Shown piece after piece: positions 49,576-51,996 of a stretch of DNA of 64,000 bases. The notes under the pieces are model-generated. The model saw only the letters and a list, made by a program, of their open reading frames with translations. It was not told where the DNA came from and searched no databases. The stretch comes from Yuukianura sp. NJ FZ-2021 (taxonomy: Eukaryota), in the NCBI GenBank assembly GCA_046563655.1, contig CM102289.1, positions 9,362,001-9,426,000 on the forward strand. Direction: 5' to 3'. How positions within the stretch are numbered: position 1 is the stretch's first letter; each line of letters begins with the position of its first letter. A program made the position numbers and the translations under genes.

Positions 49576-51996
49576 ATGGCTGACGCAGATGATCTTTTGG
49601 ATTACGAAGAAGAGGAAACCGCTGAGCAAACTGCTGCGGCCGACGGAGCCGCTGACGGCGTGGCCGTAGCGTCCAAAAAGGAAGTCAAAGGAACGTACGT
49701 CTCCATTCACAGTTCCGGTTTCAGGGATTTCCTTCTCAAACCAGAAATTTTGAGAGCCATCATTGATTGCGGTTTTGAACATCCATCGGAAGGTAATTCA
49801 AAGTTACTAAACGTTTTACAAATGTAAAAAGTTACATAGATGATGAGATTTTATTGGTTTCATTCGCGGTTTCTACCAGAATTAACGTGTTGGCCTTGAG
49901 CCTGTCTGATTACTAACTTAATTATCGCTTACTACTGAAGATGGTCACATGTAATCTAATAACGTTTTATTTTTGTATATTTCAGTTCAACATGAGTGCA
50001 TACCACAGGCAGTATTGGGGATTGATATCCTTTGTCAAGCAAAGTCTGGAATGGGCAAGACAGCCGTCTTTGTGTTGGCTACGCTGCAGCAGCTAGAACC
50101 AGTAGAAGGCGTTGTGTCTGTCTTGGTTATGTGTCACACTCGAGAACTTGCTTTCCAGATCTCAAAGGAATACGAACGATTTTCCAAGTATATGCCAACA
50201 GTGAAGGTAAATAAGCATGAATGGCATGATTTAGATAAGAACGTAAAATCTACGATTTACAATGATGAGAATTGTTATTGGTACCATTCGCGGTTTCTAC
50301 CGGATTTAGTGACGGCCCGCCATCGTCTGAGTTTATATAAGCTTCTAACAATCGTAAATGCGACGTTTAAGTTCATCAGTTGGTAATTTTCAATTGGTTT
50401 TCATTGAAATTGCAGGTAGCCGTGTTCTTCGGTGGGTTGCCGATTGAGAAGGACGCACAGGTTTTGAAGAACAATTGCCCGCATATTGTTGTGGGAACTC
50501 CTGGACGTATCTTGGCTCTCATCAAGCAAAAGAAGCTTTCACTCAAGAACGTCAAGCAGTTCATTCTGGACGAGTGTGACCGAATGCTGGAGGCACTTGG
50601 TAAGACCAACGGTAAACAAACGTTCTTAAGACGTTTTTTAACATTGTGTTTGACTTGTTTCAGATATGCGACGAGATGTGCAAGAAATCTTTAGAAACAC
50701 ACCGCACGAGAAGCAAGTCATGATGTTTTCGGCTACGTTGAGTAAAGACATCCGCCCCGTTTGCAGAAAATTTATGCAAGATGTAATAATCAATTTCATC
50801 CAGCGGAGAGAGCACTCAAGAGTGTCGAGTGGTGGATGATCGTGACCTTTGACTTCTTCTCTTTTAGCCCATGGAAGTGTTTGTCGACGACGAAGCGAAG
50901 CTGACTCTGCATGGACTCCAACAACACTACGTCAAGCTCAAAGAAAACGAGAAAAACAAGAAGCTGTTTGATCTCTTGGATGCACTCGAGTTCAATCAGG
51001 TGAGATTTCACTAATTTCGAATGAAGTTTTCAGAATTTCTAAAAATTAAAATGATGAGAATACTTTGGTTTCATTCGCGGTTTCTACCAGAATTAATGTG
51101 TTGGCCTTGAGCCTGTCTGACTTTGACACAAATTCAATCCATTTTATGATCGATTTTCGATCACTTCTGACCGATTTTTTATGATTTTTAGGTCGTGATC
51201 TTTGTGAAGTCGGTACAGCGTTGTATGGCTCTGGCGAATCTCCTCACGGACCAAAACTTTCCAGCAATTGCGATTCATCGTGGGATGACCCAGGAAGATC
51301 GGCTGTCTCGATACCAGCAATTCAAGGACTTCCAGAAACGGATTCTCGTGGCCACCAATCTGTTCGGAAGAGGAATGGATATTGAGCGTGTCAACATCGT
51401 CTTCAACTACGACATGCCTGAAGACACAGACACTTATTTGCATCGAGTTGCCAGAGCTGGGCGGTTTGGCACAAAAGTAAGTTCCATTTCATTTCGCTAC
51501 AAATCGATTCTTTGACGTTTTCCTCCCCAAAAATAAAAATGATGAATACAGATAGGGACATTTGAAATGAAGATGAAAAACCATTCTGTTTCTCTTTTCT
51601 GATTACAAAAAAATCGGGATGAAAATCGACAATAATAATCATGTGATTACTAAATAATCGTGTTTGAATTGCAGGGTTTGGCGATTACTTTCGTGAGTGA
51701 AGAAGGAGATGCGAAAATTCTGAATGAGGTCCAGAACCGGTTTGATGTCAACATCACACAACTACCGGATGAAATTGACCTCTCAACTTACAGTAAGTGC
51801 TGGAACTAATTACTAATTGAATTGTAGTTGTGAGTGAAGATGATGATAACGAGATAGGGACATATGAATTCTTTGATTAAGAACAATCTTGAACTCTCTC
51901 TTACTGAAAAACCAAACCAAAAGTATGCATTTTTAAGTTTTTGGGTGAAAATCTAATGAATTTGTGTATTTTTTTTTCACAGTTGAGGGACGTTAA
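49576..51996 (+). CDS. DDX39B: Spliceosome/TREX RNA helicase UAP56 (DDX39B/Hel25E), 8 coding exons
   Basis: [80 protein letters not shown]. Confidence 0.99.
49840..49909 (+). ncRNA. SNORD14: Intronic box C/D snoRNA, U14-like (copy 1)
   Basis: C box ATGATGA (49840), CATTCGCGGTTTCTACCAGAA (U14 domain A, antisense to 18S GAAACCGCGAATG), D box CTGA (49906-49909), flanking AAGTTA/TAACTT stem, ~76 nt from the 3' splice site. Confidence 0.88.
50262..50330 (+). ncRNA. SNORD14: Intronic box C/D snoRNA, U14-like (copy 2, divergent)
   Basis: ATGATGA (50262), CCATTCGCGGTTTCTACCGGA, CTGA (50327-50330), flanking TACGATT/AATCGTA stem. Confidence 0.85.
51051..51120 (+). ncRNA. SNORD14: Intronic box C/D snoRNA, U14-like (copy 3, near-identical to copy 1)
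   Basis: ATGATGA (51051), CATTCGCGGTTTCTACCAGAA, CTGA (51117-51120), ~71 nt from the 3' splice site. Confidence 0.88.
51539..51602 (+). ncRNA. SNORD74: Intronic box C/D snoRNA, U74/Z18-type 28S guide
   Basis: C box ATGATGA; guide AGATAGGGACA (antisense to 28S UGUCCCUAUCU); D' TTGA; C' ATGAAGA; D CTGA; flanking TTTTCCTCCC/GGGATGAAAA stem. Confidence 0.82.
51840..51907 (+). ncRNA. Intronic dual-guide box C/D snoRNA (U74-type D' guide plus U26-type D guide)
   Basis: ATGATGA; AGATAGGGACA-T-ATGA (D'); TCTTGAACTCTCTCTT-A-CTGA (antisense to 28S AAGAGAGAGUUCAAGA); ~75 nt from the 3' splice site. Confidence 0.87.

Follow-up and report, generated by a model that had tools for sequence, protein, structure and literature searches.

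U14-like box C/D RNAs with domain A and without a canonical domain B in introns of a UAP56/DDX39 helicase gene

U14, the textbook dual-function snoRNA, belongs to the small number of snoRNAs without which 18S rRNA is not made. The introns of a helicase gene described here hold three U14-like RNAs with an altered stretch before box D (pre-D). The locus raises the question whether such RNAs serve rRNA processing only, or whether the pre-D stretch still guides a methylation at the canonical or at another site. We consider it likely that the three are processing-only U14 (SNORD14) RNAs in which the methylation guide has decayed. Judged by sequence, they are U14-type RNAs with domain A and without a canonical domain B.

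The host is a UAP56/DDX39-type DEAD-box helicase gene on the + strand at 49576-51996 of the window, the whole 64-kb stretch of DNA that was analysed. Its eight coding exons (49576-49792, 49986-50206, 50416-50599, 50664-50782, 50868-50999, 51192-51476, 51675-51792, and 51983-51996) are spliced into an open reading frame of 429 amino acids plus stop, and all seven introns have GT..AG borders. Exon 6 was matched best by DDX39A (E 2.5e-55) and DDX39B (about 3e-54), followed by yeast Sub2 (1.8e-34) and other DEAD-box proteins at 7e-20 or weaker. The same exon gave a Pfam Helicase_C match. The gene is nearest to DDX39A/B, not to other DEAD-box proteins, in agreement with a sequence-only reading of this DNA that had named UAP56 as the host. 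A single metatranscriptome contig, which shows 6 differences from the window over 274 nt (about 98% identity), has intron 1 removed at exactly 49793-49985. In one assembled metatranscriptome run, 5% of the sampled words were present; three contigs aligned, all of them on exons and with no bearing on snoRNA expression. The snoRNA-bearing introns of the host measure 189-209 nt, the two empty introns 64 and 85 nt. By Pfam, the genes of the window are metazoan (QSOX, flotillin, MBT, Integrator 14, EF-hand, serine carboxypeptidase); none of these matches points specifically to the arthropod origin assumed in the sequence-only reading.

The sequence-only reading had described three C/D cassettes of about 70 nt in separate UAP56 introns, with a common string ending in (A/G)GA. 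The cassettes were recovered in introns 1, 2, and 5, all on the + strand, and measure 69, 68, and 69 nt from TGATGA to CTGA. Copy 1 (intron 1, 49840..49909) comprises a C box (49840-49846), domain A (49861-49873), a D'-like CAGA (49877-49880), a degenerate C' box TGTTGG (49888-49893), a pre-D of 12 nt (49894-49905), and a D box (49906-49909). Copy 2 (intron 2, 50262..50330) has its C box at 50262-50268, domain A at 50285-50297, a D'-like CGGA at 50301-50304, the C' box TGACGG at 50310-50315, a pre-D of 11 nt at 50316-50326, and the D box at 50327-50330. Copy 3 (intron 5, 51051..51120) is arranged as C box (51051-51057), domain A (51072-51084), CAGA (51088-51091), TGTTGG (51099-51104), a pre-D of 12 nt (51105-51116), and D box (51117-51120). 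Boxes ATGATGA (C) and CTGA (D) are present in all three copies, and CATTCGCGGTTTCTACC(A/G)GA is exact in each. The 17-mer CATTCGCGGTTTCTACC matched the window three times, always within the copies, and gave no match in 100 dinucleotide shuffles. A profile built from 16 homologues detected no fourth U14-like copy in the 64-kb window.

From the end of the D box to the last intron base, 76 nt (copy 1), 85 nt (copy 2), and 71 nt (copy 3) were measured, within the 70-86 nt given earlier. In work attributed to Hirose and Steitz from 2001, intronic box C/D snoRNAs are said to lie about 70-80 nt upstream of the 3' splice site. All three copies have the sense orientation and the distance from the 3' splice site of intron-encoded box C/D RNAs. 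Flanking stems had been ascribed to the cassettes in general. This holds for copy 1 (external stem of 6 bp) and for copy 2, with a long, imperfect stem; none was predicted for copy 3. Fold z-scores were about zero in all three cases.

Two further box C/D snoRNAs of the + strand belong to the snoRNA set of the host gene and are separate from the U14 finding. One lies in intron 6 (51539..51602) and carries the D' guide GATAGGGACAT, resembling SNORD74 and Me28S-Cm2645 (Rfam SNORD74, 22.5 bits, E 0.08). This guide is also found in the equivalent introns of two relatives (contigs L042 and L045). The other, in intron 7 (51840..51907), combines the same D' guide with a SNORD26-like D guide (snoMe28S-Cm2645, 30.7 bits, E 0.0016, gathering 48; SNORD26, 21.5 bits), and its counterpart was found in L042.

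The assignment to U14 starts from domain A. Domain A CATTCGCGGTTTC and the boxes of all three copies align to the Rfam SNORD14 (RF00016) consensus CAUUCGCAGUUuCCaCC plus GUCUGA. In an E-value search with this model, copy 1 scored 22.9 bits (E 0.23), copy 2 25.5 bits (E 0.044), and copy 3 25.8 bits (E 0.035). No Rfam match in the window reached gathering level; the SNORD14 gathering score is 64 bits, and all three copies stay under half of it. The low score of 23-26 bits results from the short D'-to-D stretch. Domain A is perfectly complementary to GAAACCGCGAATG. A search with the pattern GAAACCGCGAATGGCTCATTA, in which the exact domain-A complement is joined to adjoining 18S sequence, retrieved 12 loci; by Rfam all 12 are 5' ends of eukaryotic 18S, and GAAACCGCGAATG lies close to that end. 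The complement was located at position 78-82 in each of the three surrogate 18S sequences examined (L061, L065, and L069). The 18S sequences used for domain-A pairing and for the search of pre-D targets are those of other eukaryotes, not this species' own. On these surrogates, the copies possess the roughly 13 nt of complementarity to the 18S 5' domain that define a U14 domain A.

Domain B of U14 consists of about 14 nt before box D that are complementary to 18S ACAUCCAAGGAAGG and guide a Cm, the equivalent of human C462. Such a stretch is absent from the copies. With the canonical domain-B target, the pre-D stretch (10-12 nt) pairs at 5-6 of 14 positions in the correct register; in any register the maximum is 8 of 14, with a longest run of 5. 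Twelve canonical U14 sequences from metagenomes paired with that target at 12-14 of 14 positions in the same in-register test. The pre-D strings quoted in the sequence-only reading are present as written, and their poor 18S pairing was reproduced. Its description of the RNAs as U14-like, with domain A kept and canonical domain B missing, agrees with both the SNORD14 alignment and the in-register counts. Canonical domain B followed by a D box had no match at <=3 mismatches in the 64-kb window, and the 11-nt domain-B core matched the window 25 times, at chance level (20 expected). Among the 60 distinct U14-like sequences with this domain-A variant in our own scan, no more than 12 had a canonical domain B.

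A metagenome search for C box plus domain A yielded 57 loci, of which nine, on seven contigs, encode UAP56 orthologues. In those genes U14 occupies introns 1, 2, 3, or 5, and the 1-2-5 layout of the window was found in one contig (L042/L043). The pairing of U14 with UAP56 as its host is an old one, found in at least five further UAP56 genes at the species level. Most of the genes compared have reached saturation at four-fold degenerate sites (6-12 identical of 28-33; closest pair 20/34). U14-like RNAs of other lineages were found inside or beside quite different genes. All 16 aligned UAP56-hosted copies (alignment A1) keep the exact 17-mer and boxes C and D. The invariance of domain A among the relatives is partly ascertainment, because the search pattern required domain A; extra paralogues on the same contigs, which the pattern did not force, all keep the 17-mer and the boxes. 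A search with nhmmer detected no degenerate extra copies.

The pre-D stretch evolves differently from these elements. Mean pairwise identity is 1.00 for boxes plus domain A, 0.53 for pre-D, 0.52 for the 5' spacer, 0.51 for the linker, and 0.37-0.45 for the flanks. The length of pre-D stays at 10-12 nt in all 16 sequences. Between the closest pair of species, three orthologous pairs compared by eye in A1 differ by 6 changes in about 35 nt of pre-D, an indel included, and by none in the boxes and domain A. As far as the alignment tells, pre-D does not behave as a conserved methylation guide in the relatives. A stretch that keeps its length while its sequence drifts would most likely be a spacer for snoRNP geometry, not a guide. 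The five sequences of the intron-2 class all agree at 8 of 11 pre-D positions, and the changes are mostly C/T transitions. On this alignment, pre-D is not fully free to vary.

Retargeting of the guide would account for such restraint. In that case pre-D, especially that of the intron-2 class, works on a new rRNA, snRNA, or other target, and U14 is still bifunctional at a different site. We regard this as unlikely. In principle, 11-12 nt between C' and D are enough for a guide in archaeal and eukaryotic C/D RNPs, and the intron-2 class offers a good C' box UGACGG together with the 11-nt element CYYGCCAUYGU. Its eight invariant positions persist despite saturated synonymous divergence. Its variable cells hold mostly C or U, both able to pair with G; in one sequence, however, the third variable position is A instead of C or T. 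Copies 1 and 3 of the window are identical in pre-D though their 5' spacers differ at several positions. Against a guide role, pre-D identity across the 16 sequences is no better than that of the non-guide spacers, and indels among orthologues would put a guide out of register with box D. Targets are missing as well. In the three surrogate 18S sequences, no run exceeded 9 bp and none started adjoining box D. Complements within the window were the genes' own antisense strands, besides one 1-mismatch match at chance level. A 28S search in viral_contigs with two motifs returned a single gapped LSU fragment of 364 nt. Self-pairing of pre-D with domain A or the 5' spacer was rejected as a further option, as it comprised just 3-4 bp by eye and was not common to the copy types.

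A more specific version, which we hold to be rather improbable, assumes that the UAP56-hosted U14 genes of this animal clade have split for good into two sets of paralogues. Those of the intron-2 class, whose C/U changes in CYYGCCAUYGU all leave pairing with G intact, would guide modification of a G-rich site (ACRAUGGCRRG) that is unmodified in model organisms, and the ancestral 18S Cm would have been lost or handed to another snoRNA.

It is very unlikely that some or all of the copies are decayed or unexpressed pseudo-snoRNAs from intron duplication, with a functional U14, perhaps with domain B, elsewhere in the genome. The degenerate C' box (UGUUGG) of copies 1 and 3 and the missing stem prediction for copy 3 would fit such decay. 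However, none of the 16 UAP56-hosted copies, which come from lineages with saturation at synonymous sites, shows a change in box C, box D, or the 17-nt domain A, and the placement 71-85 nt before the 3' splice site is preserved, a pattern unexpected for pseudogenes. That domain B still works, the canonical 18S cytidine being guided via irregular or bulged pairing or compensating 18S changes, is hardly credible. Copies 1 and 3 do contain CCUUG and UGU, similar to portions of the canonical CCUUCCUUGGAUGU, but no more than 8 of 14 positions pair, and mismatches fall 4-8 positions from box D, in the region that has to pair around the nucleotide to be methylated. The motif was found in two of the three surrogate 18S sequences, and both have the target ACATCCAAGGAAGG intact. 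The pre-D of copy 2 and of the relatives is quite different in sequence.

The preferred reading, a processing-only U14, suggests the following course. The three copies would be paralogous orthologues of U14. Once the UAP56/DDX39 pre-mRNA is spliced, they would be freed from introns 1, 2, and 5 and presumably packaged as box C/D snoRNPs. The 13-nt domain A CAUUCGCGGUUUC may then base-pair with GAAACCGCGAAUG in the 18S 5' domain, at about position 82, and would act as the U14 processing or chaperone element in 18S maturation. The ancestral domain B has probably decayed, and box D is now separated by 10-12 nt from a weak C' box (UGNNGG).

U14 without domain B is not new in kind, since it has already been described in flies and other organisms. 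The available portions of three papers describe fly or dipteran U14 as having domain A only, report another C/D snoRNA predicted as guide for that 18S site in flies with reference to Yuan et al. 2003, and list Euglena and Tetrahymena U14 as likewise lacking domain B (PMC6315972, PMC3273799, PMC6461891). The novelty that the sequence-only reading claimed for a domain-A-only U14, and tied to this state being undocumented in arthropods, is thereby largely withdrawn as far as these portions go. Its claim of a new host gene survives in part: among the papers listed, our literature search found no report linking U14 to UAP56/Hel25E, but the association itself is old, as its recurrence in the relatives' UAP56 genes indicates. 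U14 candidates exist in C. elegans, according to the accessible part of the source (PMC2943600). Searches for arthropod U14 host genes, with insect and crustacean names and hsc70/invertebrate, partly at abstract level, found no report, and no literature was found for snoRNA U14 30Ea and 30Eb. UAP56 as a U14 host appears unreported, which is a modest addition.

The known picture of U14 biology is unchanged. The locus adds a metazoan lineage beyond the fly case in which the two functions of U14 appear uncoupled. The arrangement of several U14 copies together with two SNORD74-like guides in UAP56 introns has persisted in species that diverged deeply, and this helps to annotate U14 where the Rfam model fails. 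As a natural experiment, the locus could also show whether the 18S Cm that corresponds to human C462 can be dispensed with. If that nucleotide is methylated, a guide of the fly type would be expected, with ...TTGGATGT as its last bases ahead of a D or D' box.

Among the known systems, Tetrahymena TtnuCD25 and Euglena U14 share domain A and the lack of domain B, to the extent of the passages available. They are protist RNAs, independently transcribed or clustered, whereas the present copies are intronic in a metazoan helicase gene. Human DDX39B (UAP56), an orthologous helicase gene, also carries intronic box C/D snoRNAs, SNORD84 and SNORD117 in the available part of the source (PMC4696412). These guests are orphan snoRNAs and not U14, a contrast drawn from descriptions, not from a comparison of sequences. 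Vertebrate U14 is represented by three copies in separate hsc70 introns, according to the source text at hand (PMC7277114). It resembles the present RNAs in boxes C and D and in being intron-encoded, with the three copies spread over different introns of a single housekeeping gene. Domain A of the present copies differs from the Rfam SNORD14 consensus at 2 of 17 positions. Unlike vertebrate U14, these copies lack domain B, reside in another host gene, and have a much shorter D'-to-D stretch. Drosophila U14, as portrayed in the available passages of citing papers, corresponds to them as a box C/D RNA with an 18S-complementary domain A and no domain B. The present copies lie in three UAP56/DDX39 introns; for flies, a replacement guide for the 18S Cm site is predicted. 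As domain A occurs without domain B in both, processing and methylation appear decoupled in Drosophila U14 and in these copies alike.

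The three U14-like cassettes (copies 1, 2 and 3; 49840-49909, 50262-50330 and 51051-51120, plus strand) are probably genuine U14-type snoRNAs. They retain domain A only, the element pairing with the 5' domain of 18S rRNA, and most likely act in 18S processing. Copies 1, 2 and 3 occupy introns 1, 2 and 5 of their host gene, respectively. In every copy, ATGATGA is separated by 14-16 nt from the exact 17-mer CATTCGCGGTTTCTACC, which is followed by a D'-like NGA and, beyond a short linker, by a C'-like TGNNGG; another 11-12 nt precede CTGA. The 64-kb window contains this 17-mer three times, against none in 100 shuffles; a profile search of the window detected no fourth copy. 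The D box ends 76, 85 and 71 nt from the 3' splice site (copies 1, 2 and 3), the classic placement of intronic C/D snoRNAs. An external stem is predicted for copies 1 and 2, and none for copy 3. The sequence-only reading of three stem-flanked C/D cassettes holds for anatomy, shared 17-mer and splice-site spacing, and fails for the stem of copy 3.

The host is a UAP56/DDX39-type helicase gene with eight coding exons (49576-51996, plus strand). The spliced product of 429 aa begins with a 14-residue stretch (letters not shown) and ends in STYIEGR. Exon 6 matches human DDX39A and DDX39B with E-values of 2.5e-55 to 3e-54, yeast Sub2 with 1.8e-34 and other DEAD-box proteins with 7e-20 or weaker; together with a Pfam Helicase_C domain in this exon, the ranking identifies the gene, by similarity, as a UAP56/DDX39 orthologue. 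All seven introns have GT..AG borders. Five measure 189-209 nt and carry one box C/D cassette apiece, and the two without a cassette measure 64 and 85 nt. Splicing of intron 1 is seen in a metatranscriptome contig with 6 differences from the window in 274 nt (~98% identity), which joins 49792 to 49986 and leaves out exactly 193 nt. A second contig differs from exon 7 (51717-51781) at 8 of 65 nt and extends into a spliced C-terminus (...YIEGR stop) belonging to the UAP56 of another species, which shows the run to contain several related species.

Introns 6 and 7 contain box C/D snoRNAs resembling SNORD74/Me28S-Cm2645 (51539-51602, 22.5 bits, and 51840-51907, 30.7 bits; both below gathering). 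They have the D' guide GATAGGGACAT in common, which also occurs in equivalent introns of the relatives L042 and L045; the intron-7 snoRNA additionally has a SNORD26-like D guide. Metazoan-type Pfam domains occur in neighbouring ORFs of the window: serine carboxypeptidase (600-1430), EF-hand (6022-6615), nucleoplasmin-like (7630-8544, minus), LRR (11737-12570), MBT (20419-20889), flotillin (32127-32540), parts of QSOX (33927-36235, minus) and Integrator subunit 14 (46438-47145). The long ORFs 41087-43309, 28117-29607 (minus), 25181-26524 and 12924-14156 had no Pfam match.

An Rfam scan of the window yielded no family at its gathering score. A search by E-value matched each of the three cassettes to SNORD14 with 22.9-25.8 bits (gathering 64). 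The alignments cover box C, the consensus domain A (CAUUCGCAGUUuCCaCC) and GUCUGA, and skip 52-60 central model positions, domain B among them. A query combining the complement of domain A with adjoining 18S bases, run against bacterial and archaeal assemblies, found 12 loci, all eukaryotic 18S 5' ends by Rfam, so 18S rRNAs with C in place of the yeast/human U exist. In these surrogate sequences from other organisms the complement lies at 18S position 78-82, and the G in the window's domain A pairs with the variant C; it could also wobble-pair with U. The twelve contigs (L058-L069) are filed as bacterial isolates or MAGs, one match sitting within a 676-kb contig (L069), a sign that these assemblies contain eukaryotic contaminants.

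The pre-D stretch, between the C'-like box and box D, is the canonical position of domain B, the guide for an 18S Cm. Immediately before box D, copies 1 and 3 have the 14 nt GGCCTTGAGCCTGT, and copy 2 has CGGCCCGCCATCGT. Only 5-6 of 14 positions pair with the domain-B target ACATCCAAGGAAGG in the required register, and at best 8 of 14 in any register (longest run 5). The target is intact in both surrogate 18S sequences in which the motif was found. Both earlier propositions, a kept domain A and a missing canonical domain B, are borne out, the former by the aligned SNORD14 consensus and the exact complement in surrogate 18S 5' ends.

Metagenome contigs were scanned for box C plus this domain-A variant, yielding 57 loci with 60 distinct U14-like sequences. 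UAP56 orthologues were found at nine loci on seven contigs (L003, L009/L010, L024, L025, L042/L043, L045, L048), with U14 copies in introns 1, 2, 3 or 5; the other 48 loci had no UAP56 match. Contig L042/L043 repeats the window layout, with U14 copies in introns 1, 2 and 5, and introns 6 and 7 each hosting a GATAGGGACAT snoRNA. At four-fold degenerate sites of exon 2, most UAP56 pairs are identical at 6-12 of 28-33 positions, and the window and L043 at 20 of 34; by this measure the genes are deeply diverged.

An alignment of 16 UAP56-hosted sequences (3 window, 13 metagenome) is invariant in box C, in the 17-mer and GTCTGA, and in GA of D' and TG..GG of C'. The query pattern dictated one match on each contig, but not the further paralogues found there, all of which keep the 17-mer. 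Nhmmer detected no degenerate extra copies on the UAP56 loci. Mean pairwise identity of the pre-D stretch (0.53) equals that of the 5' spacer (0.52) and linker (0.51) and is just somewhat above the flanks (0.37-0.45). All 16 sequences have a pre-D stretch of 10-12 nt. By-eye counts over three orthologous pairs of window and closest relative gave ~6 changes in ~35 pre-D positions, including an indel, and none in boxes and domain A. A true methylation guide would be expected to act like domain A; the pre-D stretch behaves like a length-constrained spacer. The main rival reading, that it guides a new target, above all in the better-formed intron-2 class (copy 2 and its counterparts), is improbable; in five sequences of that class, 8 of 11 pre-D positions are invariant. 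Copies 1 and 3 show just one difference from domain A through box D (49861-49909 vs 51072-51120) and are unlike at several 5' spacer positions and completely in the flanks; in the closest relative, the copies of introns 1 and 5 have unlike pre-D stretches. From this pattern, gene conversion or a recent re-duplication seems to have occurred in the lineage of the window.

Among the 60 metagenome sequences, in-register pairing with the domain-B target was canonical (12-14/14) in 12, 10-11/14 in four and at most 9/14 in 41; three could not be scored. Pfam analysis of 78 ORFs from 17 of the 48 non-UAP56 loci placed U14-like RNAs in or beside EF-2-like genes (L001, L002, L036), RPL37e (L046), a MIF4G/MA3 gene (L056) and CSN5-like genes (L035, L052), with no match at the other surveyed loci; to judge from these neighbours, which belong to other environmental eukaryotes, the host gene changed many times. 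A pair of domain-B-less copies ~1.3 kb apart recurs on long contigs of several metagenomes (L005-L008, L020/L021, L027, L029-L031, L033/L034, L038-L041, L044, L047), with pre-D strings ...GAAGGTTGAAGATGT and ...GATGACGT. Flanking ORFs scanned at L005, L006, L041 and L044 had no Pfam match.

The uncoupling of the two U14 functions is already documented, and the novelty claimed for a domain-A-only U14 largely lapses. Fly U14 lacks domain B, and the 18S nucleotide is predicted to be guided by an unrelated C/D snoRNA (PMC6315972, sections 3.7 and 4.3, citing Yuan et al., 2003); section 15 of PMC3273799 gives the same account of fly U14. Section 18 of PMC6461891 lists Euglena, Tetrahymena and Diptera without domain B. 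UAP56 as a new host gene stands in that none of the papers found in literature searches connects U14 with UAP56/Hel25E. New here, and of modest interest, are the lineage, the stability of UAP56 as host and the presence of two paralogue classes. Human DDX39B hosts SNORD84 and SNORD117, according to PMC4696412, and mammalian hsc70 introns contain three U14 copies (PMC7277114, section 3). Metagenome locus L004 (JAAUYG010057130.1) carries five U14 copies in tandem, 300-530 nt apart, and in each of them the canonical domain B is perfect (14/14), a clustered organisation in contrast to the intronic U14 of the window.
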